Source of the DNA: a phage
DNA length: 64,000 nucleotides
Direction: 5' to 3' (one strand)
Sequence record: OZ346189.1
The notes under the pieces are model-generated. The model saw nothing but the letters and a program-made list of their open reading frames with translations. It was not told where the DNA came from and searched no databases. Numbering within the stretch: position 1 is the first letter of the stretch; the number at the start of each line of letters is the position of its first letter. Positions 16,520 through 28,203 of this stretch are shown piece by piece. The translations under genes were made by a program, and so were the position numbers.

Positions 16520-17040
16520 GCCAGATATTTTAAAATTCTTAGAAAATCAGAAAATGGATCGAAAACTAAAATGGATTTTTCAAGACAGGCACGATAAGAT
16601 GTGCTGCTCATTCTATCGTTCGCACCGTACTTTAAGTCACTATTCCAGATTTTTCCGCACATACTCTCACCCTTCTACCAGAACTTTCCCAGCTTACCTC
16701 TGACCTTTTATAACAATAAGTCCATTATTATCAGAAAGTTTCGGCACATCTCTTTCGGTACTCGATCTGTTTTTCATTTCAAAGACCTGATTTTCTGAAA
16801 ATTTTTCTCGATAAATTTCTTAGTACTCGATCTGTTTTTCGTTTTCTGAATCGGATTTTCTGGAAATCGTTCCAGCCCTCGACCTGAAATTTTTGGGGAC
16901 GAAATCGATTTTTCGTTTTCAGAAATGGATTTTTAAAATTTCTATATGGGAATATTTTATGGGATACTGTTTTATAGGAAATTGTTACGGAGGGTAATTA
17001 GCATGCTAATTAAATTTATTAAATGCGAGGAGTTCTCATT
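16520..17040. repeat. AT-rich non-coding region with direct repeats and an 18-bp perfect palindrome
   Basis: GTACTCGATCTGTTTTTC at 16758-16775 and 16823-16840, related CTCGACCTGAAATTTTT at about 16876; repeated AAAATGGAT; palindrome TAATTAGCATGCTAATTA 16995-17012. Confidence 0.5.
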
Positions 17041-17983: not shown

Positions 17984-18382
17984 ATGAAAACCACTACCTT
18001 TAATTTTGATAATGCGGACTTTTCTTTTTCTGATGTCAAGAACTGCCGCCGGGATCGTGGATTTTACAAGGCTTATAATCTGGTGGGCCTGGACGATGAC
18101 AATAATTTGCACGAAGTAGCTGAGATCCGGTATTATGCCGCCGCCAGCGGGAACACTCAATACTGCGTTTTTTGGATTCACGACAACAAGAACAATAAGT
18201 ACGGTTATACTGGCGGGAAGGCGAGCGGTCACGGTTACGATAAAGCTAATGCAGCACTTGAGAGCGCATTAAATGCTATGGGGATCACTGCCAACGGCTG
18301 GATCTATGAAGAAGAGTTTTTGTCGGCACTTGCTGACCACCTGGGCTATAAAAAGCACATTGTAACATGCGCCCACGAATAA
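17984..18382 (+). CDS. hypothetical protein
   Basis: 132 aa; AAGAGGA SD. Confidence 0.55.
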   Translation: MKTTTFNFDNADFSFSDVKNCRRDRGFYKAYNLVGLDDDNNLHEVAEIRYYAAASGNTQYCVFWIHDNKNNKYGYTGGKASGHGYDKANAALESALNAMGITANGWIYEEEFLSALADHLGYKKHIVTCAHE

Positions 18383-18388
18383 AAATTG

Positions 18389-18416
18389 TTGACACGCTGC
18401 AAAATTCAAGTAAACT
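18389..18416 (+). promoter_or_regulatory. sigma70-like promoter
   Basis: TTGACA 18389-18394, 16-nt spacer, TAAACT 18411-18416; followed by leader hairpin 18427-18445. Confidence 0.5.
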
Positions 18417-18464
18417 AGTCACAAAAGGCGGGAATGTTTCCCGCCAACACAAAGGAAAAAGATC

Positions 18465-18869
18465 ATGAATAAGAACGTACGCCGCATCATGAACGAACTG
18501 GCAAACGATGAAAAAATTATTGACATGCATTTGATCAACATTTGCCGCCGTTGTGTAACATATAACAACCGCGCCGCAAAAGCGCGTGAGATGAACGCAA
18601 AAGGCACCTTAAAGCCATTCCAGGTGGTGGTAAAGGCCATTAAAGATGTAGCTAATACGGCAAACCAGGTACAGGGGAACACCAACGAGAGTACCAATAT
18701 TGATCCGGCTTACATCATGAAACGGATCCGGACCTGCAAGAACAAAGAGCAAGTGTATAATGTCATAGACTGGTTGGATTCTATGGGCGATGTGGTGTAC
18801 AATAGATTCTCGGCAGCTATTGAGATCCAGCTTGACAGGTTAGACGGTAAAGTACTTAAAACTTACTAA
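18465..18869 (+). CDS. hypothetical protein
   Basis: 134 aa; AAAGGAAAAAG SD. Confidence 0.55.
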   Translation: MNKNVRRIMNELANDEKIIDMHLINICRRCVTYNNRAAKAREMNAKGTLKPFQVVVKAIKDVANTANQVQGNTNESTNIDPAYIMKRIRTCKNKEQVYNVIDWLDSMGDVVYNRFSAAIEIQLDRLDGKVLKTY

Positions 18870-18870
18870 A

Positions 18871-18915
18871 TTTATTTTTAGATGGCCTTGACTCCAGGGC
18901 CATCAATAAAGTAAA
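18871..18915 (+). repeat. 45-bp post-gene hairpin element, copy 1
   Basis: TTTATTTTTA-GATGGCC-TTGACTCCAG-GGCCATC-AATAAAGTAAA; stem 18881-18887/18898-18904; directly after stop codon. Confidence 0.6.
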
Positions 18916-18949
18916 TTAATCTCAGCTAAGCGAAAAAGGGGGCTTTAAG

Positions 18950-19069
18950 ATGAGCACTACACGCCAATACACAAAGGTAACTATTATCGCCTGCGTTGTC
19001 GGTTACATCCTGGCGCAAATGTTAATGAGTAGCGCTAACAGTTTTGCAAAATTTTTCTTAAATTTTTAA
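18950..19069 (+). CDS. small hydrophobic protein (39 aa)
   Basis: ATG 18950 after AAAGGGGG SD; MSTTRQYTKVTIIACVVGYILAQMLMSSANSFAKFFLNF; below ORF-track size cutoff. Confidence 0.4.
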   Translation: MSTTRQYTKVTIIACVVGYILAQMLMSSANSFAKFFLNF

Positions 19070-19097
19070 TTGACAAGCTAACTTAGATTGATATACT
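19070..19097 (+). promoter_or_regulatory. sigma70-like promoter
   Basis: TTGACA 19070-19075, 16-nt spacer, TATACT 19092-19097. Confidence 0.55.
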
Positions 19098-19148
19098 TAA
19101 ACACGTAAACGGGAAAACTTCCCAGAACACACAAAAGGAGAAAACACC

Positions 19149-19490
19149 ATGACTACTATGACCGCCGCAGAAAAAGCTATTCAGATCGCCGCACTGAAAA
19201 AACAGATCGCAGACCTTGAGAACAAGATCGATAACTTTGAAATCGACGAGGACAAGTACGACGAAAACTATGATGAATGGTTAGACGAGATCTACGGCGA
19301 AATTATGATCGGAAACATTTCTTTTCTTCCGTCGCGTATCCTCAAGGAGCTAGATCCTATCACTTACCGCTGCGGATTTAGCGACTACATCGACAGCCTG
19401 GATATTGAGGACGATGAAGAATACCAGGAATTACAGACAGAGTTAGAAGAAGCAAAAGAAGAGCTTGCAGAACTGGAAGAAAACGAGTAA
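19149..19490 (+). CDS. highly acidic protein (candidate DNA mimic)
   Basis: 113 aa, about one third Asp/Glu with predicted coiled-coil N-terminus; AAAAGGAGAA SD. Confidence 0.55.
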   Translation: MTTMTAAEKAIQIAALKKQIADLENKIDNFEIDEDKYDENYDEWLDEIYGEIMIGNISFLPSRILKELDPITYRCGFSDYIDSLDIEDDEEYQELQTELEEAKEELAELEENE

Positions 19491-19492
19491 GA

Positions 19493-19536
19493 TTATTTTT
19501 AGATGGCCTTGACTCCAGGGCCATCAATAAAGTAAA
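19493..19536 (+). repeat. 45-bp post-gene hairpin element, copy 2
   Basis: Identical core to copy 1; stem 19502-19508/19519-19525. Confidence 0.6.
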
Positions 19537-19579
19537 CTTTATACTGTTAACACTGAACTAATGCATAGGAGTTAAAACC

Positions 19580-19825
19580 ATGGCAGCACTAATCACCAAA
19601 TATTATGCCCCTACCAACACCAAAAGCGCCCGTATCATGGTAAAAGGCTTCGGACGTAAAAAGGTGTACACCTGGGATTATGCCTTAGACACGGAAGACA
19701 ACTACACCAACGCGATGACCGATTTTATTAATGATCTGAACACGCGGATCTTGACAAATTATAAAATTACCGATATTGCCTATATAGGGGAAGGCGGGAT
19801 CTGTTTTGTCGGTATCGTCAAATAA
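19580..19825 (+). CDS. hypothetical protein
   Basis: 81 aa; TAGGAG SD. Confidence 0.5.
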   Translation: MAALITKYYAPTNTKSARIMVKGFGRKKVYTWDYALDTEDNYTNAMTDFINDLNTRILTNYKITDIAYIGEGGICFVGIVK

Positions 19826-19900
19826 GCTGTTTTTTCGGTGGTCCTGGTAGCAGGGCCATCTATAAAGATAGTTTATCAATACAATGAAAGGAGAAAGTAC

Positions 19901-20254
19901 ATGATCAGCGGGGCAAGTTTTATTATTGGCGCTATTGCTACGGCTTTAATTGTAAACAAGATCCAATCTAAAAACGAAAAAGATAGCAACGCCCTTACAG
20001 AATACCCGTTTTGGGTATTCAACGACAATGAAGACTATATTATCAAGTACAAGAATGAGAAGGGCGACCAGGTAACACCGCGACCGATCCCGGCTTACAA
20101 GATGCAAGAAACACTATACCGCCTAAAGGCTGGAGGCGCAAAAATCGTAGACTTTTGGGGATACGATCACACAGATCAGGAAGTTATAAAGCGCCGTATC
20201 CGGGCTATTCAGGCCAATATTGAAGTTAGCAAGGGGGGAATATATGAAGATTAA
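19901..20254 (+). CDS. membrane-anchored protein
   Basis: ORF track 19838-20254; ATG 19901 after AAAGGAGAAAG; N-terminal TM helix ASFIIGAIATALIV. Confidence 0.5.
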   Translation: MISGASFIIGAIATALIVNKIQSKNEKDSNALTEYPFWVFNDNEDYIIKYKNEKGDQVTPRPIPAYKMQETLYRLKAGGAKIVDFWGYDHTDQEVIKRRIRAIQANIEVSKGGIYED

Positions 20255-20441
20255 TTTTGAGAAGATTGTAAAGCGATCTCATGCTTCCGAAGAGCTGCCG
20301 GAACGCCGCCAGCGCAACAATAAACTGAATAAGCCAAAAAGATTTGGGAAGATCTGGCGGAATCATTATGATCGCAAATTACCGGGCCTGCTTTTGGAAC
20401 GTGAACGACAGGCGGAACGATACCGCCACAAAGGCAAATAA
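20244..20441 (+). CDS. small basic protein
   Basis: ORF track 20220-20441; ATG 20244 after AAGGGGGG; Arg/Lys-rich. Confidence 0.45.
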   Translation: MKINFEKIVKRSHASEELPERRQRNNKLNKPKRFGKIWRNHYDRKLPGLLLERERQAERYRHKGK

Positions 20442-20449
20442 CAACCAAC

Positions 20450-20474
20450 GCCCCGCCATTGTGCGGGGCTTTTT
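20450..20474 (+). terminator. rho-independent terminator
   Basis: GCCCCGC-CATTGT-GCGGGGC followed by TTTTTATTT. Confidence 0.65.
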
Positions 20475-20622
20475 ATTTCTATCCTACGAATAGCGCCCCC
20501 GGTTGGCCCTGTAAGCGCCAAAAAGGCCCCACCTATGCAATCGCCCCCCTTTAACCTGAAAACATCGCTTAGGGCCGTTTTATGGCGTTAAAAATATCAT
20601 TGATAGTGATTTTATTTAAAGC

Positions 20623-20650
20623 TTGACATCTTAAACAGGTTAGCTATACT
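20623..20650 (+). promoter_or_regulatory. sigma70-like promoter
   Basis: TTGACA 20623-20628, 16-nt spacer, TATACT 20645-20650. Confidence 0.55.
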
Positions 20651-20682
20651 AACCACATCAAAGAGAGAAAGGAGTAAACGCC

Positions 20683-20943
20683 ATGCGTAAATTAAAAAAT
20701 TTTGATAAAGTTGATGTTGTCCTGAATAATTTTTACTACTGCAACAACAAGGCCATTTGGTGGCGTGATAGTTCCACCGATAAAGTCAAGGCGCGCTTTC
20801 TCCAGGGGCACTGGCAAGGCCGTCCAGTGATTAAAATCATGGGGCAATTGGTAGCGTTTAAAAATTGCCGCCGTGTTGATGACGTTGAGGAGATTTTAAA
20901 CATTTTGCGCCACAATAATTTAAAAAATAGTGTTGACAAGTAA
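20683..20943 (+). CDS. hypothetical protein
   Basis: 86 aa; AAAGGAG SD. Confidence 0.5.
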   Translation: MRKLKNFDKVDVVLNNFYYCNNKAIWWRDSSTDKVKARFLQGHWQGRPVIKIMGQLVAFKNCRRVDDVEEILNILRHNNLKNSVDK

Positions 20944-20960
20944 ATCTCAATAAGTATAAT
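20933..20960 (+). promoter_or_regulatory. sigma70-like promoter
   Basis: TTGACA 20933-20938 (overlaps upstream stop), 16-nt spacer, TATAAT 20955-20960; leader hairpin GGCGGGAAAACTTCCCGCC 20971-20989. Confidence 0.6.
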
Positions 20961-21017
20961 TAAACACACAGGCGGGAAAACTTCCCGCCACTAACAAAGA
21001 AAACAGGAGAAAATATC

Positions 21018-21641
21018 ATGACCACCGTTAACATTACCACAGGTTACAATTTAGCTTTCGACGTGCTGACCGACGAACAAAAAGAAAAAGCCGTTGAAAT
21101 GGTCCGCGAAAGAGAAGAACACAGCGGGGATAACTTTTTTGCAGAAAGTGTAATTGAAGACTATAAAGAATATATCTTTCCAGAGTATGGCCTTGAAGAT
21201 ACCGAAGTACATTGGTCCGGCTTTTGGTGCCAGGGCGACGGCGCATCAATCAGTGCGGAAAACGTGGATTTAGAAAAATTCTTGCGTAAAGTCAAGTCTC
21301 TGACTAAATTCCGCTCAATTCGTCACTTGTTCGGCACAATGCACGATGGCGAGCTATCCGCAAGTGTTGAGCGCGATCCATATAGCCGTTATAGTCACGA
21401 AAACACTGTAAGCGGGTACATCGATACTACATGGCTAGACCTGACCGCCAAACAAGAAAACAAAGTGGAAGACCTGGAAGAACTGATCACCGAGACGGTA
21501 CGGGAGCTATCCCGCAAGGTTTACGTAGACCTGGAGGAGGCCTATCTAGAACAGTTCACCGCAGAAAACCTGATCGGCCTTATCGAGGCCAATGATTGGC
21601 GGTTTGATGTCGATGAATATGGTGAGATGACTTTTTCATAA
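21018..21641 (+). CDS. acidic hypothetical protein
   Basis: 207 aa; ACAGGAGAA SD; Asp/Glu-rich. Confidence 0.55.
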   Translation: MTTVNITTGYNLAFDVLTDEQKEKAVEMVREREEHSGDNFFAESVIEDYKEYIFPEYGLEDTEVHWSGFWCQGDGASISAENVDLEKFLRKVKSLTKFRSIRHLFGTMHDGELSASVERDPYSRYSHENTVSGYIDTTWLDLTAKQENKVEDLEELITETVRELSRKVYVDLEEAYLEQFTAENLIGLIEANDWRFDVDEYGEMTFS

Positions 21642-21731
21642 ATAAAGTGTTGCAATAGCCTAAAAACCTGCTATATTAAAACTCAAGGGGGCAAGACGTT
21701 TGCCCCCACACAAAACAAAGAGGAAAACATC

Positions 21732-22112
21732 ATGAAAAACACTACTAAAGCTATTGACACTGTTATGTTTAACCTGGTTACATTCCGTGAAGATATGAAA
21801 GATCTTCCACGTGAAACAGTGTGCGATCACATTGAAAACTATCGCAAACTAATCAAAGAGTTGCCTTTAAAACGTGACCAGTATGCGGCTAACGCTATGC
21901 TTAACGCCATGATCAAAAAGATGATTCAGTGTGATTTAACTCTGGCCTATGATTATGCAGGTGGTCGTTTTGCAGTATACAATCAGCCCGTGCCTGGTAT
22001 GAGCACCACCGAAGAATTGCACGCGTTAAATCTGAAACAAGATGTATGGGATAACATGCCCCGCGTGGTGGTGTGGGCAGAAAGCGGAAAGATTTACGGC
22101 GATAATTTTTAA
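21732..22112 (+). CDS. hypothetical protein
   Basis: 126 aa; AAAGAGGAA SD. Confidence 0.55.
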   Translation: MKNTTKAIDTVMFNLVTFREDMKDLPRETVCDHIENYRKLIKELPLKRDQYAANAMLNAMIKKMIQCDLTLAYDYAGGRFAVYNQPVPGMSTTEELHALNLKQDVWDNMPRVVVWAESGKIYGDNF

Positions 22113-22122
22113 TCAGGTAACA

Positions 22123-22148
22123 GGCGGCATATTTGCCGCCTTATTGTT
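22123..22148 (+). terminator. rho-independent terminator
   Basis: GGCGGCA-TATT-TGCCGCC followed by TTATTGTT. Confidence 0.5.
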
Positions 22149-22176
22149 AAACAGAACTGCAAAAGAGGTACATAGA

Positions 22177-22548
22177 ATGGAATTTATTATTTTGGCTGTA
22201 GTAGTTGCCTTGTTCAACGCCTGGATCGCTGGCAAGATAGGTAGATCCGCTTTTCTATGGTTTGTTATATCTATTTTCCTGGGAGTGGTTGCAACTATTG
22301 TATTGGTTATCCTTGCAATTGTTGACAAGGGCGATAATAGAAAGGGTAAAGTGTTTTCCGACCTGTATGACGCACAAACGTTTGTCAACGCCTATTATAG
22401 TGATCTTCCAGTCTCCCTACGCTGCAGCCTGGCACAACAGGTTTTTGATGAGGCTAAAACCAGAGACCAAGCCCATGAGATATGTTTAACTGAAGCGGAT
22501 CGCCTATTTGAGAGGAATAGAAAATATGTGGACCAGCCGTTTAAATAA
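22177..22548 (+). CDS. membrane protein
   Basis: ORF track 22042-22548 spans the terminator; ATG 22177 after AAAGAGGTA; two TM helices (FIILAVVVALFNAWIA, FLWFVISIFLGVVATIVLVILAIV). Confidence 0.5.
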   Translation: MEFIILAVVVALFNAWIAGKIGRSAFLWFVISIFLGVVATIVLVILAIVDKGDNRKGKVFSDLYDAQTFVNAYYSDLPVSLRCSLAQQVFDEAKTRDQAHEICLTEADRLFERNRKYVDQPFK

Positions 22549-22658
22549 CGCCACGTTAATTAATCCCTTTAGTGAAGATTTGAAGCCAGCCGCCTGGCGT
22601 GACGGATTCAATAACGAACGCTTTATTTTCAGGCCTGATCTTGAGGAATTTTATAACA

Positions 22659-22784
22659 ATGGATCGAACAACAGCGGAGATAATTTTTCTTGTGGTGTGC
22701 GTGGTGATAGGACTCCTGGGGGCCATTGTAAACCACGTCACTACTAACAGGAGGGAAGGGGGAGACGATGACAACCAAGGATAA
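22659..22784 (+). CDS. small membrane protein (uncertain)
   Basis: ORF track 22599-22784; ATG 22659; TM segment IIFLVVCVVIGLLGAIV; competes with overlapping ORF 22508-22747. Confidence 0.3.
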   Translation: MDRTTAEIIFLVVCVVIGLLGAIVNHVTTNRREGGDDDNQG

Positions 22785-22891
22785 GCCATGCGCTGATAAG
22801 GTGCGCCGTGTTATGGTATGGCTTGAGATTATCGCCCTTGAAATATTGTTAGGCGTAGGGATGTACTTTATCGCTGTAAGTAACTAAGAGC

Positions 22892-22920
22892 GGCCCCCGA
22901 TCATGGGGGCCTATCTTTTT
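22892..22920 (+). terminator. rho-independent terminator
   Basis: GGCCCCC-GATCAT-GGGGGCC followed by TATCTTTTT. Confidence 0.65.
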
Positions 22921-22942
22921 AAAAAATTTTTCTTCCGGGGTG

Positions 22943-22970
22943 TTGCAATCCGGTCCGGAATGTGGATAAT
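22943..22970 (+). promoter_or_regulatory. sigma70-like promoter
   Basis: TTGCAA 22943-22948, 16-nt spacer, GATAAT 22965-22970; leader hairpin 22981-22995. Confidence 0.45.
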
Positions 22971-23026
22971 AACAATCAACGGGGAGCTAATCCCCACCAC
23001 CACAAAAACCAGAAAGGAGAAACAAA

Positions 23027-23227
23027 ATGAGCAACAATATCCGCGTTATTAACTTCAAAAAAGAAGAAAAAATTGCCGTGCTGATTGACGGTCAAGAAAT
23101 CTTCAAGGGCGACTATGAAGATCATCAAACGGCGATTAGTATCACTCGCGTGATTGGTTATCATAATTTCTACCCCCAAGGCGCTGAGGCAGCAGTTAAA
23201 CGAATCAAAGAGATTGTAGGCCTGTAA
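23027..23227 (+). CDS. hypothetical protein
   Basis: 66 aa; AAAGGAGAA SD. Confidence 0.5.
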   Translation: MSNNIRVINFKKEEKIAVLIDGQEIFKGDYEDHQTAISITRVIGYHNFYPQGAEAAVKRIKEIVGL

Positions 23228-23230
23228 AAT

Positions 23231-23274
23231 TTATTTTTAGATGGCCTTGACTTCAGGGCCATCGATAAAGTAAA
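23231..23274 (+). repeat. 45-bp post-gene hairpin element, copy 3
   Basis: TTATTTTTA-GATGGCC-TTGACTTCAG-GGCCATC-GATAAAGTAAA; two substitutions relative to copies 1-2. Confidence 0.6.
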
Positions 23275-23320
23275 TTTAAACCCTGTTAAAATACCACGCA
23301 GTTAACAAGGAGTGATAGAC

Positions 23321-23620
23321 ATGTTTATCCAGGCTAATAATCTTTATTTCTTTGATGGTCAGATCGTAGATGGTGTGGAAGTGGAGATCACCGGGTGCCC
23401 TGGCGGTCAGGCTATGACTTTTCGGAATAATGCCTTTGATGATTCTCATATCGTTATGAGAATGGAAGTTACGAAGCTGGACGACAAGAAAACACTTATT
23501 GACTATTCTGTGAAAGATCATCCAGACTACCGCATGATCCATGGTGATTTGTGCATTGTTGACCGTGACAAGGTGGGCGGCATTGTGATCGCTATTGTGA
23601 ACGATGTTTTCTCAAACTAA
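23321..23620 (+). CDS. hypothetical protein
   Basis: ORF track 23312-23620 (GTG); ATG 23321 after AAGGAG SD. Confidence 0.5.
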   Translation: MFIQANNLYFFDGQIVDGVEVEITGCPGGQAMTFRNNAFDDSHIVMRMEVTKLDDKKTLIDYSVKDHPDYRMIHGDLCIVDRDKVGGIVIAIVNDVFSN

Positions 23621-23637
23621 TTTCAGCAGGCGATTTT

Positions 23638-23988
23638 ATGAAAGTCAAACTATATTACCTTAATGAGCTTAACCCCCTTGCCCAGGTCCGCGCCCTAGCT
23701 AATACCTTGATTTGTGAGAAATCTGTATATTGTGTTGAGCTTAACGCCATGCGTGAACGTCTCAAAGGTGGTTACTTTGACATCCATGCTGCAATCAACG
23801 GCCTGAATATGGAATTTATACGCTTACGTAACAGCCGCCGGAATCTGGCAAGAATGGAACAAGATCCGGCCCACCTTCGTAAGCTGGTTATTGAAAATCA
23901 TCTGATGTTTAATGCCGAGGGTGATTATTACCATTTTCACCGCAAACGCTGGTACCGTGGCGGCAATACAGGCAAGAATGCAAAATAA
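23638..23988 (+). CDS. hypothetical protein
   Basis: 116 aa; weak SD. Confidence 0.45.
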   Translation: MKVKLYYLNELNPLAQVRALANTLICEKSVYCVELNAMRERLKGGYFDIHAAINGLNMEFIRLRNSRRNLARMEQDPAHLRKLVIENHLMFNAEGDYYHFHRKRWYRGGNTGKNAK

Positions 23989-24023
23989 GGCCCCTAGCAG
24001 GGCCTGCAGCAATATAATCACAT

Positions 24024-24057
24024 AAAGGCCATGCGGTTGCATGGCCTTTATTATTTT
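24024..24057 (+). terminator. rho-independent terminator
   Basis: Perfect 11-bp stem AAAGGCCATGC-GGTT-GCATGGCCTTT followed by ATTATTTT. Confidence 0.7.
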
Positions 24058-24190
24058 GGCGTTACAACGGCATACGGGGCGCTTAAAAAATTTTTAAAGA
24101 AGTACTTGCATCATTCCCGACAATATGGATAATAAGAGTTGTCGAGGGGGAGGCCCCCAATCGTTGACCAGATAGATAGGAGTTAAAATC

Positions 24191-24475
24191 ATGGCTATTG
24201 TTACCGCTGGCGATGTAGTAGAAATGGAAGCAAAATACTTAAAAGCGGGTATGCACATCCTACGGAATGATCAAGAGTTATTATTAACGATGGTTGACTA
24301 TAATCACGGCCAGGATTATCCAAGCATCGACTACTTTTTTGAGTATGTTGATGAAGAGTTGAAAGAGGATGAGGCCTATTGCGGTGAGTTCTGCAACTTC
24401 TTTTGTCCTGATGAGGTTGTAAAGGTTATTTATCAACCTGGCGTAGCTTTCCCGCTGCACGCTATCAATAAATAA
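24191..24475 (+). CDS. acidic hypothetical protein
   Basis: 94 aa; TAGGAG SD. Confidence 0.5.
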   Translation: MAIVTAGDVVEMEAKYLKAGMHILRNDQELLLTMVDYNHGQDYPSIDYFFEYVDEELKEDEAYCGEFCNFFCPDEVVKVIYQPGVAFPLHAINK

Positions 24476-24530
24476 ACCTGGCGGGGCCGAAAAGGCCCCC
24501 AATTATGAAAATAAAGAGAGGCAAATCATC

Positions 24531-24764
24531 ATGATGGAACAAATTAAACGCGCCGAGGCTATTAATGGCAACGTGATCTATTTTGTCAGCAAAAACGAAA
24601 AAGGCGTACCATATGCGGCAGTAATAGTACAACCTGACGGCGATTATTGGTTTACTGTGTACGGCGCTTATTCTTTTGGGCGTCCAGTGCATGATAAAAT
24701 TTTGAAAGTAGCGAACCCTACCGGGAAGAATATCACAGCAGAAAAATTTTTTGAAAATAGTTGA
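24531..24764 (+). CDS. hypothetical protein
   Basis: 77 aa; AAGAGAGG SD. Confidence 0.5.
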   Translation: MMEQIKRAEAINGNVIYFVSKNEKGVPYAAVIVQPDGDYWFTVYGAYSFGRPVHDKILKVANPTGKNITAEKFFENS

Positions 24765-24788
24765 CATGACCATATAAGACTGTAATAT
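24761..24788 (+). promoter_or_regulatory. sigma70-like promoter
   Basis: TTGACA 24761-24766, 16-nt spacer, TAATAT 24783-24788; leader hairpin about 24799-24814. Confidence 0.55.
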
Positions 24789-24839
24789 ATAAATCAAAGG
24801 GGGCAACTAACCCCACCAACTACAAAGAGGATAAAAATC

Positions 24840-25019
24840 ATGGCTATTATTGCAAAGACTGAGATCGTAGGCTTAGATTCTATTCTCCTCGCATATGAGG
24901 AAGCTATAGAAATGTATGTGGTTTCCTATGGTGAGTATATCCGTGAATATAAATCTATTGATCTGGCTTTTGAATGTTATATCCGCCAGGTTAATAAAGC
25001 GTACGATGATTATCGTTAA
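24840..25019 (+). CDS. hypothetical protein (59 aa)
   Basis: ATG 24840 after AAAGAGGA SD; 60 codons to TAA 25017-25019; below ORF-track cutoff. Confidence 0.45.
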   Translation: MAIIAKTEIVGLDSILLAYEEAIEMYVVSYGEYIREYKSIDLAFECYIRQVNKAYDDYR

Positions 25020-25025
25020 AATAGT

Positions 25026-25054
25026 TTGACAACAGCCATCTTACAAAGCATAAT
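25026..25054 (+). promoter_or_regulatory. sigma70-like promoter
   Basis: TTGACA 25026-25031, 17-nt spacer, CATAAT 25049-25054; leader hairpin GGCGG...CCGCC 25061-25079. Confidence 0.55.
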
Positions 25055-25106
25055 ACATAAGGCGGTGGAATGGTCCGCCACCTGGAACAAAGAAGAGGTA
25101 AACACC

Positions 25107-25352
25107 ATGAAAAGCAATAAAGGTTATAACGGTTACAAAAACAAAACTCATTGGAATGTAAGCCTTTGGATTAATAACGATGAGTCATTGTACCGGTTGG
25201 CCCAAGGCTTTATTAACGCCAATGCTAATCGTAATGATGCGGCGCGGGATATGATGCTTTTTCTGGAGCTAACCGGACAAGATAAGACCCCGGACGGCTT
25301 CAAGTACAGCACTACGGCGATCCGTGCCGCGATGGTTGGAATGAAACACTAA
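25107..25352 (+). CDS. hypothetical protein
   Basis: ORF track 25026-25352 starts in promoter; ATG 25107 after AAGAGGTAAA. Confidence 0.5.
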   Translation: MKSNKGYNGYKNKTHWNVSLWINNDESLYRLAQGFINANANRNDAARDMMLFLELTGQDKTPDGFKYSTTAIRAAMVGMKH

Positions 25353-25429
25353 AAGCACATAGCTGCCTTACCCTGGGGCTGTGGTAGCGGCCCCATGAAT
25401 AAGGTTACTAACAGAAGAGAATAAACACC

Positions 25430-25534
25430 ATGAAACAGAAATTAATCGATGCAGTGATCTTGGTTATTGCCCTGGGTATTGGCCTGATTGCAACCATGTC
25501 TAATATGATCTTGTCTTCCAACGGTATCGGGTGA
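25430..25534 (+). CDS. small hydrophobic protein (34 aa)
   Basis: ATG 25430 after AGAAGAGAA; MKQKLIDAVILVIALGIGLIATMSNMILSSNGIG. Confidence 0.35.
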   Translation: MKQKLIDAVILVIALGIGLIATMSNMILSSNGIG

Positions 25535-25543
25535 GGTTGGCAA

Positions 25544-25759
25544 ATGATCACTAACAAAACAGGCAAAACGGAATTTTTACGCAACTTACAGATCGGCAAG
25601 CCTGAGATCTGGTACTGCACTAAAACACCACGTGACGAAATGAAAGACTTCACCGCCACGCTGCAACGGGTAAAGATATCTATCACGCAGAAAAAGGCCT
25701 TACTAGTGGTGGAAGGGGAGATCCCCCAAACCGTTGTTATAGTTGAGCGTACAGCATAG
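25544..25759 (+). CDS. hypothetical protein
   Basis: 71 aa. Confidence 0.45.
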   Translation: MITNKTGKTEFLRNLQIGKPEIWYCTKTPRDEMKDFTATLQRVKISITQKKALLVVEGEIPQTVVIVERTA

Positions 25760-25850
25760 TTTAATTTATACAGATACCTGAAAATTAACCAACAAAGCAT
25801 AAACAGGCGGTTACCGCCGCCTTAAACGTAGCAGAAAGAGGATAGACACA

Positions 25851-26135
25851 ATGAAAAAGATGATCGCAGTGGTTACCCTGGTTGTTGGACTTAATGCGCC
25901 TGTAATGGCTAAAGAGCTGGCAAAAGAGGTTAATCTAACGGATATTCATGCCGTCAATCAAATCGGGGTTACTTATCGCTTATGCCTTGCCGCTAAAACT
26001 TTTAAGGACGGCACAACAGAGTACTACGGATTCGAGGGTATCCGGTGCGGTGAGCTTGCTCGCGACCTTAAGGAAGATCCAGACCTGGAGGATCTGCCCA
26101 TAACCGTGAACGGAAAAACTTACGTGAACCGTTAA
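25851..26135 (+). CDS. secreted/periplasmic protein
   Basis: 94 aa; signal-peptide-like N-terminus MKKMIAVVTLVVGLNAPVMA; AAGAGGA SD. Confidence 0.5.
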   Translation: MKKMIAVVTLVVGLNAPVMAKELAKEVNLTDIHAVNQIGVTYRLCLAAKTFKDGTTEYYGFEGIRCGELARDLKEDPDLEDLPITVNGKTYVNR

Positions 26136-26469
26136 CCATGAGAAAGATAATTATTACCATGGGGATCGTGGCGGCAATGTTGGCGATCTTTCCCTTTATG
26201 GTTAGGTATGTGCTGATTAATGTTGTCCTGGTAGTCAGCGATCTGGTGTTATATATTAACTCATTGTTTTAGGCGCGATAATGACAGCGGAAGAAGTTAA
26301 AAAAAGTACTGGCGGTACTGCGTTATCATAATCATTGCAAGGTGAAGAATGATCCTGATTATCTTGATTCATCCCTTGAAGAGGATACACTACAAGCCAT
26401 AAGCAACATGCAAGAATTGCTTAAGCGTATGACAGAGAAAAACCGACCGGACTACATAGGGGGTAAAAT

Positions 26470-26781
26470 ATGATCGCTATTACGCCAACCGTTTTAGATT
26501 GGTATCGGCAACGCATAGCGCCTCCGCTGGCTATCTTCAAAGATGCGGAAGCAAAACAACGCCGGATCTCAATACATGAGATCATCAACCTTAACGCTGG
26601 AGGCACACCATACCGCCCAGGACCTGGCCGTGAGATGGACAATACATTGGCGATCCTGAAGATACGCCGTAAACGGTCCTCCCTTACGCTGGATTCATTA
26701 CACACAATGCAGTCCCCGTTCCAGGTGACTGGGAAACGGATCGCCAGGTCCTGGACAAAGGCCAATGACCGGACCGTATAA
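26470..26781 (+). CDS. hypothetical basic protein
   Basis: 103 aa; GGGGG SD. Confidence 0.45.
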   Translation: MIAITPTVLDWYRQRIAPPLAIFKDAEAKQRRISIHEIINLNAGGTPYRPGPGREMDNTLAILKIRRKRSSLTLDSLHTMQSPFQVTGKRIARSWTKANDRTV

Positions 26782-26868
26782 ATAAAAAGTGTTTTGGTAC
26801 TGATTTTGGGGTTGACTTGTTCGGCCCCTTTTGCTATTCTTATTAAACGGGCGGCACTTGGGAACAGG

Positions 26869-26891
26869 GGGAGACAATCACCAGGCCTGCC
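26869..26891 (-). repeat. conserved motif copy 3 (inverted orientation)
   Basis: GGGAGACAATCACCAGGCCTGCC on + strand; reverse complement 22/23 identical to 17081-17104, flanking CCCCTGTT also conserved. Confidence 0.5.
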
Positions 26892-26916
26892 TGTCATATA
26901 AGAACTATAAAAACCG

Positions 26917-26945
26917 TTGACATCTGCCAGGGGGTGGGGTAACAT
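26917..26945 (+). promoter_or_regulatory. sigma70-like promoter
   Basis: TTGACA 26917-26922, 17-nt spacer, TAACAT 26940-26945; second candidate TTGACT 26812-26817 / TATTCT 26835-26840. Confidence 0.4.
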
Positions 26946-26999
26946 TTATCTTGAAGGGGCAAAGGTGCCCACACAACAACCAGAAGAGAGGAAAACACT

Positions 27000-27272
27000 A
27001 TGTCAAGCTGGATTAATCAAGAAGTCGAATCACGTTTTAATGCTATTTGGGATCTCATCGAAAAAGAAGACGGCACATCAAGCCCCTACCTCAACAATTT
27101 GGAATTCCATTTTGTGGAAGCGATGAACGCAGAACATGATCACGAAGGTGGTGCGGACGAGTTCGCTAAAGGGTATGGCTTCAACAATGCCAACGAAATG
27201 ATCGAGGCGGTTGTACTCCAGGCTGAGGAAGATTATCAATTAAAAACGCTTGAATTCTGCCGCCGTAAGTAA
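27000..27272 (+). CDS. acidic hypothetical protein
   Basis: 90 aa; AGAGAGGAAAA SD. Confidence 0.5.
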   Translation: MSSWINQEVESRFNAIWDLIEKEDGTSSPYLNNLEFHFVEAMNAEHDHEGGADEFAKGYGFNNANEMIEAVVLQAEEDYQLKTLEFCRRK

Positions 27273-27332
27273 TAAGATAATGACACGGGCCGGGAGGCCC
27301 ACTAATCAGAACCACACAAAGAGGTAAACATC

Positions 27333-27596
27333 ATGAAACGTCTTGATCAGCTTAAACTAGTTCAGTACATGGCCTACAAAGTTCTTGAAGTCCAAAAAGG
27401 TAGCAAAAAAGAGGTTTGCGAGAAAGCATATAAGATCTTTACCCGTAAAAAAGATGATTGGATGTTACGCCAGACCAAAAAAGCCGATATCCTGGGATAC
27501 CTGGAAGAAGAGATCCGACTTGAAGAACAAGAAGAGATCCGCCGTAGTGAGGCAGATTATCAGGCAGCTTGGGAAAACTGGATGAGCAACAAATAA
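27333..27596 (+). CDS. hypothetical protein
   Basis: 87 aa; AAGAGGTAAA SD; Lys/Glu-rich. Confidence 0.5.
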   Translation: MKRLDQLKLVQYMAYKVLEVQKGSKKEVCEKAYKIFTRKKDDWMLRQTKKADILGYLEEEIRLEEQEEIRRSEADYQAAWENWMSNK

Positions 27597-27662
27597 TACA
27601 ACAAGTTACATGGTCAGGGGCAATAAAGCCCCTTGATCACATAAAAATTATGCTATCCCTGG

Positions 27663-27691
27663 TTGACAGGGATCGGCAGTTTTGCTATATT
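27663..27691 (+). promoter_or_regulatory. sigma70-like promoter
   Basis: TTGACA 27663-27668, 17-nt spacer, TATATT 27686-27691. Confidence 0.55.
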
Positions 27692-27740
27692 CTTTTTTGA
27701 AGGGAAGTTGTAAGAAAATTAACTAAGAGGTAAAAACACC

Positions 27741-28160
27741 ATGAACATTAAATCTAATAATCCGGCATATAGCTTTGATAACGCTTTTTGTCACGGTCCG
27801 GCGGCGAAAGGATTCGAAATCGATGGTAAACTAATTATTGTCAATGTTGACGGGGAAGAGGTTGCAGTATATCCGGTGGCAGACGTAAAAAGCCGTTTAC
27901 AATGCCGCATGGATGTTACCGCCTATCAGCTTGATCCGGTCCGCATAGTTGCCCTGGTCCTGGAAGAAGAAATTAAAGCCATGCACCATAGCAACAGATT
28001 TATTGGTGACGCGCAGGATAATATGAAAGTATGCCGCCATAAAGTTAATGAAGTGCTTAAAGAGTACGGCTATAAAGATCTTATGATCAAACGTGAGGAA
28101 AAATTCCGCTACCGTAACGACCTGGCAAATCGGATTTTTGAAATATACGAATCATTATAA
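27741..28160 (+). CDS. hypothetical protein
   Basis: 139 aa; AAGAGGTAAAA SD; last gene of + block. Confidence 0.55.
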   Translation: MNIKSNNPAYSFDNAFCHGPAAKGFEIDGKLIIVNVDGEEVAVYPVADVKSRLQCRMDVTAYQLDPVRIVALVLEEEIKAMHHSNRFIGDAQDNMKVCRHKVNEVLKEYGYKDLMIKREEKFRYRNDLANRIFEIYESL

Positions 28161-28178: not shown

Positions 28179-28203
28179 AAGGGGCTTAGGCCCCTTTCTT
28201 TTT
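28179..28203 (+). terminator. rho-independent terminator at end of + block
   Basis: AGGGGC-TTAG-GCCCCT followed by TTCTTTTT. Confidence 0.65.

Follow-up and report, generated by a model that had tools for sequence, protein, structure and literature searches.

A recurring promoter-hairpin-leader cassette in the early region of an rV5-like Escherichia coli phage, with a candidate role in protecting mRNA 5′ ends

Small genes in one block of an rV5-like coliphage genome are preceded by a recurring cassette in which a near-consensus sigma70 promoter is followed, in a nearly fixed register, by a GC-rich hairpin, an A/C-rich leader and a strong Shine-Dalgarno sequence (SD). The window in which we examined it is a 64,000-nucleotide (nt) stretch of phage DNA (sequence record OZ346189.1), and the cassettes lie on its + strand within 18380-27745. 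The promoter-hairpin design is real, conserved and largely familiar: its closest known relative is the promoter-early stem-loop (PeSL) cassette of T4-like phages, most features of which are found here and one positional feature of which is not. We put at roughly 55% the probability that the 5′ hairpin stabilizes and insulates early mRNAs within such PeSL-like modules, a reading in which we infer the transcription start, the action at the RNA level and the stabilization.

Judged by sequence identity, the window is from an rV5-like E. coli phage of the genus Vequintavirus. Escherichia phage AlexBoehm is 98% identical over window bases 18380-27745 and many other Vequintavirus genomes are 93-97% identical there, with 303 matching phage records in total. 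In 14-33 kb a consensus scan counted 64 sites that resemble promoters, where shuffled sequence gave 39.3 +/- 7.0; its best + strand hits fall between genes. Scanning combined with reading of the sequence placed 12 sigma70-type promoters between 18389 and 27691, ten of them followed by a GC hairpin (Table 1), which bears out the claim of a preliminary description of this DNA that at least eight + strand genes carry a promoter-hairpin-leader-SD cassette. Promoters whose -35 boxes start at 18389, 19070, 20623, 20933, 24761, 25026, 26917 and 27663 score 10-12 of 12, those at 21650, 22943 and 24106 (TTGCAA or TTGCAT) score 9/12, and the one at 27250, found by eye, reaches 9/12 by manual count. The 22 nt upstream of -35 are 76% A+T against 57% for the region. 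Because the promoters at 20623 and 27663 lack the hairpin, the cassette is frequent rather than universal. Comparison with Table S4 of the rV5 paper (PMC3606486) shows that rV5 predictions already existed for 7 of the 12 promoters and for two more a short way upstream of the interval: cassettes 1, 2, 3, 7 and 9 correspond to P194, P192, P185, P174 and P168, and the upstream P17923 and P17641 are orthologues of P195 and P195A. That table carries the promoter sequence to ~7 nt past -10 only, and the paper mentions neither hairpins nor leader; the Certrevirus paper (PMC7344957) likewise gives a promoter consensus alone.

The hairpins of the ten cassettes begin at +7 to +14 after the -10 hexamer, with a mode of +11, and have GC-rich stems of 4-9 base pairs (bp) and predicted minimum free energies (MFE) of -5.5 to -15.9 kcal/mol. 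An MFE of -8 kcal/mol or lower was found for 9/10 downstream segments against 11.5% of background 35-nt windows. Relative to dinucleotide shuffles, the hairpin segments gave z-scores of -0.95 to -6.3, and six nearby hairpin-less promoters gave values mostly near 0, P17641, which has a weak hairpin, standing at -2.35. All six hairpins listed in the preliminary description are correctly placed, the one put at 25061-25079 extending to a helix at 25060-25083, and four others (21687-21707, 24146-24158, 26957-26970 and 27287-27300) join them.

Between hairpin and SD the leader is 58% A, 26% C, 9% G and 7% T (n = 142), against a regional composition of 31% A, 20% C, 23% G and 26% T, a T+G deficit with a binomial P of 8e-16. 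The CA-rich tract reported earlier is therefore present, as is the AAGGAG-type SD (AAGGAG, AGGAG or GAGG, with one AAGG), which is followed by an A-rich spacer of 8-10 nt. Hairpin-less promoters also have an A-rich, U-poor leader (A 50%, C 17%), which argues that the leader is a separate module; the hairpin adds ~14 nt to an otherwise similar leader, the median distance from -10 to ATG being 51 versus 37 nt. A repeat finder independently recovered the cassette parts as dispersed families, including several leader+SD+ATG families. The preliminary description had taken the CA-rich tract for a translational enhancer. An unstructured A/C-rich tract does lie beside the SD and such a role is possible, and the composition would be equally well explained by avoidance of U-tracts, RNase E sites and pairing with G.

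Table 1. Positions in the window of cassettes, related repeats, promoters, proteins and terminators, with loci of one module in other sequences (MFE in kcal/mol)
Feature	Position	Strand	Description
Cassette 1	18389..18467	+	TTGACA-N16-TAAACT; hairpin GGCGGGAA-TGT-TTCCCGCC 18427-18445; leader AACACAAAGG; ATG 18465; MFE -14.6, z -5.2
Cassette 2	19070..19151	+	TTGACA-N16-TATACT; hairpin GGGAA-AAC-TTCCC 19111-19123; leader AGAACACACAAAAGGAG; ATG 19149; MFE -5.5 (weakest)
Cassette 3	20933..21020	+	TTGACA-N16-TATAAT (12/12); hairpin GGCGGGAA-AAC-TTCCCGCC 20971-20989; ATG 21018; MFE -14.6, z -6.3
Cassette 4	21650..21734	+	TTGCAA-N16-TATATT; hairpin GGGGGCAAG-ACG-TTTGCCCCC 21687-21707; leader ACACAAAACAAAGAGG; ATG 21732; MFE -15.9
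Cassette 5	22943..23029	+	TTGCAA-N16-GATAAT; hairpin GGGGA-GCTAA-TCCCC 22981-22995; leader ACCACCACAAAAACCAGAAAGGAG; ATG 23027; MFE -9.3
Cassette 6	24106..24193	+	TTGCAT-N16-GATAAT; hairpin GGGGG-AGG-CCCCC 24146-24158 plus outer pairs; ATG 24191; MFE -12.7
Cassette 7	24761..24842	+	TTGACA-N16-TAATAT; hairpin GGGG-GCAACTAA-CCCC 24799-24814; ATG 24840; MFE -8.4
Cassette 8	25026..25109	+	TTGACA-N17-CATAAT; hairpin 25060-25083 (core GGUGGA-AUGG-UCCGCC, U.G pair); ATG 25107; MFE -14.0
Cassette 9	26917..27002	+	TTGACA-N17-TAACAT; hairpin GGGCA-AAGG-TGCCC 26957-26970; leader ACACAACAACCAGAAGAGAGG; ATG 27000; MFE -8.8
Cassette 10	27250..27335	+	TTGAAT-N17-TAAGAT; hairpin GGGCC-GGGA-GGCCC 27287-27300; leader ACTAATCAGAACCACACAAAGAGG; ATG 27333; MFE -11.5
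Hairpin-less sigma70 promoter	20623..20685	+	TTGACA-N16-TATACT; A/C-rich leader, SD; MFE -2.4, z -0.35; = rV5 P186
Hairpin-less sigma70 promoter	27663..27743	+	TTGACA-N17-TATATT; SD, no GC hairpin; MFE -1.3; = rV5 P164
Element 2 copy A	18868..18917	+	50-nt repeat (family D1); stem GATGGCC/GGCCATC enclosing -35; TTGACT-N18-TAAATT; partner in the ime deletion
Element 2 copy B	19489..19538	+	Same repeat family
Element 2 copy C, degenerate	19824..19873	+	68% identity to reference copy; "terminator" in Murica record
Element 2 copy D	23227..23276	+	"Terminator" in Murica record
Shared promoter + hairpin + gene module	L006 7521, L009 5475, L013 7155, L011 4987		Loci outside the window
Phage_1_1 (T7 early protein 1.1; T7 gp1.1-like) protein	20244-20441	+	65 amino acids, arginine-rich; Pfam E = 2e-10
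DUF7249 protein	25107-25352		Above Pfam threshold
Intrinsic terminators, canonical	20450-20479, 22892-22911, 24022-24051, 28179-28196		GC stem + T-run; consensus scan; 20450-20479 and 28179-28196 on the + strand

The same layout occurs in Vequintavirus, Septuagintavirus, Certrevirus and Phapecoctavirus, and a pooled set of 49 distinct hairpin-bearing cassettes was drawn from the window and twelve loci in these four lineages. Counted after -10, position 7 is C in 29/49, position 8 a purine in 44/49 and position 10 an A in 40/49, and positions 11 and 12 are G in 44/49 and 41/49. The G-rich arm comes first in all 49 hairpins, and the 8 nt that follow hold 0-1 T in 32/49 and never more than 4. The usual start site of E. 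coli RNA polymerase is a pyrimidine/purine step 7-8 nt after -10. With this C7/R8 start context and G at positions 11 and 12, the hairpin should begin near +4 of the transcript as predicted, after ~3 unpaired nt, a placement that, measured against predicted start sites only, is within the ~0-4 unpaired nt of the 5′ end that marks the ompA and papA stem-loops. A cross-lineage survey of 130 promoters yielded 82 unique downstream segments, 43 of them with an MFE of -7 or lower, and in 23 of those 43 the structure starts at +11. In the Phapecoctavirus Schickermooser (Stephanstirmvirinae), a near-invariant GTAGGGCGGCAATGGTGCCGCYC hairpin is found at +9 to +12 after 8 of 9 strong promoters, A7_1, of a 145-kb clade described as Septuagintavirus, has a hairpin at 7/11 promoters, and in Cronobacter phage CR9 (Certrevirus) about 4 of 13 promoter hits carry the same CACATAGGGCGG... 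hairpins, e.g., CACATAGGGCGGGGAGTGGTTCCCCGC. A search of a limited literature collection, which is no proof of absence, found no earlier description of the hairpin-leader module in these phages. We regard the module as new for them, PeSL cassettes and 5′ stem-loop stabilizers both being established ideas and the fixed +4 register its own twist.

Vequintavirus ime and slur16 share with Septuagintavirus A7_1 and with an IMG/VR contig (L009) one whole module of promoter, hairpin and gene (CATAGCGCGG(G)AA(A)TACTTCCCGCCATTAATGAGG...ATG), which suggests that entire cassettes may be exchanged between genera. On the - strand at 32134-32077, the counterpart of rV5 P144 is a promoter that shares the C7-A8 start context; from ~+10 it has a hairpin (AAGAGGG-TTTGGTT-CCCTCTT) whose behaviour may differ, since a U-rich tract follows it.

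The structure is clearly maintained. Among the distinct Vequintavirus variants of the ten hairpins, 47 of 48 still fold to -5 kcal/mol or lower at the same place. In equal-length variants only, which are not phylogenetically independent, 13 distinct substitutions fall in 38 loop positions and 11 in 104 stem positions (odds ratio 4.4, Fisher P = 0.002), and the observed changes cost a mean of 1.9 kcal/mol versus 4.4 for the same number of random changes (P = 0.014). The MiataMamis orthologue of cassette 1 has a re-made stem, GGCGGTTGA-TAC-TCAGCCGCC; relatives carry GGAGGT-GAT-GCCTCC at cassette 6 (P24106), with G-C changed to A-U on both stem sides, GGGGC-AACAA-GCCCC at cassette 7, and at cassette 5 the variant GGGGAG-ACA-CTCCCC, whose stability lies above that of 99% of random three-substitution mutants. 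At cassette 10 the loop drifts (GGGA, GAAA, AAAA) over a kept stem, with one G.U variant. Several variants create G.U pairs on the sense strand, as does the arm TGCTC of cassette 9 in MiataMamis, and in the cassette 4 orthologues, for which an IMG/VR pattern scan returned two contigs only, A-U became G.U and G.U became G-C with the helix kept. That pairing is kept at the level of the sense-strand RNA is likely. A MAFFT alignment of 22 paralogous and cross-lineage hairpins gave no RNAalifold consensus, as stem and loop lengths differ.

PeSLs were described in the T4-like phages RB49/phi1, PST and nt-1 (Arbiol et al. 2010, PMC2839356; Comeau et al. 2014, PMC4122927). Each is a dispersed unit in which a strong sigma70 promoter, preceded by A/T-rich sequence, is combined with a stem-loop of the form G(n)-loop-C(n) and ends in an SD and start codon. 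PeSLs cluster in hyperplastic, ORFan-rich regions; they have both promoter and terminator or attenuator activity, and ORFans are shuffled by recombination at them (PMC2839356, PMC4122927). The cassettes here share with them sigma70 promoters of 9-12 of 12 with an A/T-rich tract upstream of -35, an adjacent stable G-arm/C-arm stem-loop followed by SD and start codon, many dispersed copies in an ORFan-rich region, and junctions of indels and replacements between close relatives that lie inside the repeats; in the RB49 sequences that we examined the leaders are also A/C-rich. The two differ in placement, a PeSL stem-loop lying upstream of -35, over -35 or -10, in the spacer or just before the start site. 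In RB49 the stem-loop is mostly in the -35/-10 spacer or over the boxes and hence outside its own transcript, e.g., TTGACA-GGGGATCACCGATCCCC-TATAAT, whereas the ten cassettes here have the hairpin inside the predicted transcript, a fixed ~3 nt in. They differ also in family, Straboviridae on the one hand and Vequintavirinae and Stephanstirmvirinae on the other, and in that terminator activity and mini-circles have been demonstrated for RB49, whereas the present cassettes are known from sequence alone.

Alignment with ten relatives brought out indels and replacements, with three junctions resolved to the nucleotide, and a part in them for a second repeat, element 2. This element lies right after stop codons and has a TTGACT -35 box followed by AATAAAGTAAA. 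Its stem encloses the -35 box, as in classical PeSLs, to which it is a closer structural match than the ten cassettes are, and it is a PeSL-like terminator/promoter composite of a different subclass from them. Phage ime lacks 18916-19489 (574 nt), with two identical element-2 copies as endpoints and one intact copy at the junction, which is what recombination between identical copies is expected to leave. Mangalyan has an extra gene after cassette 10 with duplicated leader sequence at both bounds, and MiataMamis a three-gene, 545-nt insertion with -35 boxes at its bounds. The P25026 promoter is joined to three different hairpin+gene modules among phages, with junctions at 25034-25065, from the -35 box to the hairpin 5′ arm, and one of these modules is also present in Septuagintavirus A7_1. 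Dispersed repeat families in the block include D1, D2, D3, D6, D9 and D12, D6 being represented by cassettes 2 and 3 (P19070 and P20933), which are 71% identical over 66 nt. The cassettes are thus dispersed repeats that mark indel junctions, like the PeSLs of T4-like phages, a side of them that the preliminary description did not mention.

We propose that the early genes are driven by a dispersed family of portable cassettes. Each would consist, in order, of an A/T-rich tract and near-consensus host sigma70 promoter, a C7/R8 context with the start ~8 nt after -10, ~3 unpaired nt, a GC hairpin of 4-9 bp with the G-rich arm first, a leader of 12-20 nt that is nearly free of U and G, a strong SD, an A-rich spacer and ATG. 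In the RNA, the hairpin would hide the 5′ end and block both the 5′-end-dependent attack of RNase E that follows RppH and its scanning, and the blocked RNase E would give early mRNA a longer life. A leader free of U would keep the hairpin from being a terminator and offer few RNase E sites, and its freedom from G would spare the C-rich arm competition, leave the SD unmasked and keep the ribosome site unstructured. The repeated parts would also be homology patches for the insertion, deletion and exchange of small genes, as in T4-like PeSLs.

The components of this proposal have precedents. A base-paired 5′ end slows RNase E, an accessible monophosphorylated one being cut much faster (PMC3997798), 5′ stem-loops stabilize the ompA and papA mRNAs (Emory, Bouvet and Belasco 1992, as cited in PMC3997798), and obstacles near the 5′ end keep a scanning RNase E away from sites that lie downstream of them (PMC11194081). 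Like ompA and papA, the cassettes have a stable hairpin a few nt from the 5′ end, an unstructured leader and an efficient ribosome site, a geometry that fits the RNase E mechanism; those, however, are single host genes with measured half-lives, and here a repeated cassette precedes many phage early genes at predicted starts only. A motive for protecting phage mRNA may exist, since gp11 of rV5 is a probable Srd homolog (rV5 paper, PMC3606486) and, in T4, Srd stimulates the action of RNase E on the mRNA of the host (PMC4980113). The preliminary description had read the hairpins as 5′ stem-loops that stabilize early mRNAs; of this, the 5′-terminal placement agrees with the geometry of the predicted starts, and the stabilization itself stays at the level of a proposal.

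Several observations weigh against stabilization by a 5′ hairpin. RNAalifold recovered the helices in MAFFT-aligned orthologue sets with no double-compensatory column, one re-made stem being misaligned, and folding was not significantly better on the sense than on the antisense strand (29 vs 13, P = 0.11); selection on sense-strand RNA is therefore only moderately supported. Some relatives have single stem mismatches, and the cassette paralogues share ancestry, so their count overstates the independent evidence. The B. subtilis RppH needs at least 2 unpaired nt in vitro and prefers at least 3 (PMC3997798); the ~3 predicted here are at the permissive edge, so protection may be partial, and cassette 2 has ~6 predicted unpaired nt before a weak stem (-5.5). 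About one-third of the early promoters have no hairpin. A literature search for mapped 5′ ends, half-lives, reporter data or transcriptomes in these phages found none. Moreover, GC hairpins with neither a U-tract nor a recognizable promoter lie 3′ of stop codons at 24483-24499, 25375-25394, 25806-25818 and 27611-27639, the first three 15-25 nt upstream of the next SD and the last upstream of P27663. Their position before SDs implies that the role of the hairpin may not be tied to a primary 5′ end. These promoterless hairpins, one of which is related to the degenerate element-2 copy, may be intercistronic stabilizers or decayed cassettes.

A hairpin of this kind could instead be a PeSL-type attenuator or insulator that dampens read-through from upstream promoters, leaving the gene to its own promoter and making any 5′-end effect incidental. 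An RB49 PeSL stem-loop (GGGGATC..GATCCCC, with no obvious U-tract) lowered lacZ placed downstream to much the same extent as a strong terminator did (PMC2839356), most cassettes follow the preceding stop codon with no canonical terminator between, and the promoterless intercistronic hairpins are of the same type. We nevertheless consider this unlikely, because the hairpins lie 3′ of the predicted start, where an efficient terminator would kill the cassette's own transcript, because the true terminators of the region have T-runs and the cassettes mostly 0-1 T in the next 8 nt, and because attenuation has no need of a fixed +11 register, the RB49 stem-loops sitting at variable positions, mostly inside the promoter. 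Intrinsic termination proper on the + strand was rejected: the cassette hairpins resemble terminators in being short and GC-rich, and some annotators label related elements as such, but they have no U-tract, stand 3′ of a promoter rather than at a gene end, and were called on the + strand in 0/10 cases by a terminator scan. Nor do we give more than slight credence to termination on the minus strand, where the A-rich discriminator region would read as a T-rich tract 3′ of each hairpin. The consensus scan did call several of them minus-strand terminator-like, but their T-tracts are interrupted (e.g., TGTGTGTT, GTTGATTG) and T-richness follows automatically from an AT-rich -10 and start region; there is no minus-strand promoter of at least 10/12 in 18-28 kb, and the convergent minus-strand block ends at the T-run terminator at 28179-28196, called on the + strand.

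The hairpin might also be the site of a trans-acting phage or host factor, binding RNA or DNA, for antitermination, timed shut-off or exemption from phage-induced decay. The nearly constant sequence at most Phapecoctavirus promoters, the TAGGGCGG 5′ context common to several genera and hosts, and GNRA- or boxB-like loops such as GGGGCC-GAAAA-GGCCCC at 24483-24499 would all suit such a site. The 35 distinct sequences in Vequintavirus, with loops drifting between close relatives, argue against a sequence-specific reader, and the Pfam scan of 20 neighbouring proteins found no RNA-binding or nuclease family; an Rfam 15 scan of 14-33 kb at E ≤ 1 gave no family match, returning only Clostridium-PBP at 33.5 bits versus a gathering value of 94.4 (E = 0.39). 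We therefore hold a trans factor to be quite improbable. Similarly a long shot is that the +4 hairpin is a mark of "self," read by a factor or exempting early phage mRNA from an Srd-like RNase E boost, such that the messages of the phage survive and those of the host are removed; in phAPEC8-like phages the GTAGGGCGGCAATGGTGCCGC copies, which are almost identical, would be its sequence-specific form. Among known sites, lambda nut (boxA/boxB) and HK022 put likewise place an RNA hairpin near the promoter in early transcripts, and some loops here are GNRA- or GAAAA-like. A nut-like site was rejected, as 18380-27745 holds no [CT]GCTCTT[TA] boxA and stems and loops vary widely; each site, unlike the put RNAs, is one small hairpin of 13-24 nt, and no N-like protein was identified among the scanned neighbours. 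The 35 different sequences also led us to reject as unlikely an operator for a sequence-specific repressor in Vequintavirus. A promoter for a single-subunit RNA polymerase, to which the resemblance of CACATAGGG to the T7 CACTATAGGG might point, was rejected since the motif is at the normal sigma70 start distance; the lack of a phage RNA polymerase gene in Certrevirus CB7 (PMC7344957) also counts against it. Finally, the GC palindromes could act in DNA only, as recombination hot spots or hitch-hikers of a duplicated cassette with no role in RNA. The cassettes are indeed dispersed repeats, junctions between relatives fall in their parts, including the hairpin 5′ arm of P25026, RB49 PeSL crossovers map in and beside the stem-loop (PMC2839356), and common descent could explain the uniform G-arm-first orientation. 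This is very improbable to us given that stems are more conserved than loops and the observed changes spare pairing, that re-made and compensated stems exist, and that an exact register to the start context is kept in four lineages despite sequence turnover.

If the hairpin does protect early transcripts, it would give a simple answer to how large virulent coliphages that depend entirely on the RNA polymerase of the host keep their first messages alive while, as it appears, carrying an Srd-like activator of RNase E. If true, the PeSL idea of portable promoter-hairpin-ribosome-site ORFan modules would extend to Vequintavirinae and Stephanstirmvirinae. In practical terms, the cassettes could be used as compact, strong and insulated E. 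coli expression units, and the conserved register could provide an annotation rule for telling 5′ hairpins from terminators in therapeutically used phages.

Other composite elements were seen on the + strand. At 26808-26840, just upstream of cassette 9, a hairpin GGGG-TTGACTTGTTCGG-CCCC followed by TTTTGC holds in its loop the -35 box of a TTGACT-N17-TATTCT promoter and is another terminator/promoter composite. At 1490-1590, corresponding to rV5 P231/t232, a near-consensus TTGACA-N17-TACAAT promoter is followed ~22 nt later by a very strong intrinsic terminator, GGCCCTGCCCGAAAGGGTGGGGC + T5 (-22.8 kcal/mol), and then by an SD and a TTG start, an arrangement that would fit either a leader attenuator or a ~55-nt small RNA.

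The interval contains ~29 small + strand genes, nearly all annotated as "hypothetical protein" in relatives, and is presumably an early ORFan-rich block that ends at the convergent terminator 28179-28196. Of the 20 neighbouring proteins scanned with Pfam, 18 had no curated match, and the remaining two matched Phage_1_1 and DUF7249. Terminators listed in rV5 Table S4 include t181, t177 and t164 (PMC3606486). Between the terminator at 20450-20469 and the promoter at 20623 lies a GC-rich non-coding spacer of 150 nt (20470-20620), whose antisense strand folds more stably (-41 vs -33 kcal/mol) and at whose right edge the MiataMamis insertion is found. Farther upstream, at 16748-16933, three imperfect repeats of 47-50 nt (families D5/D8), spaced 65 and 74 nt apart, occupy a T-rich stretch poor in open reading frames. 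About 20 GenBank records carry the name "Campylobacter phage" with C. jejuni as host and share 93-95% identity with this region of an rV5-like E. coli phage; probably their host labels are wrong or the samples were contaminated.

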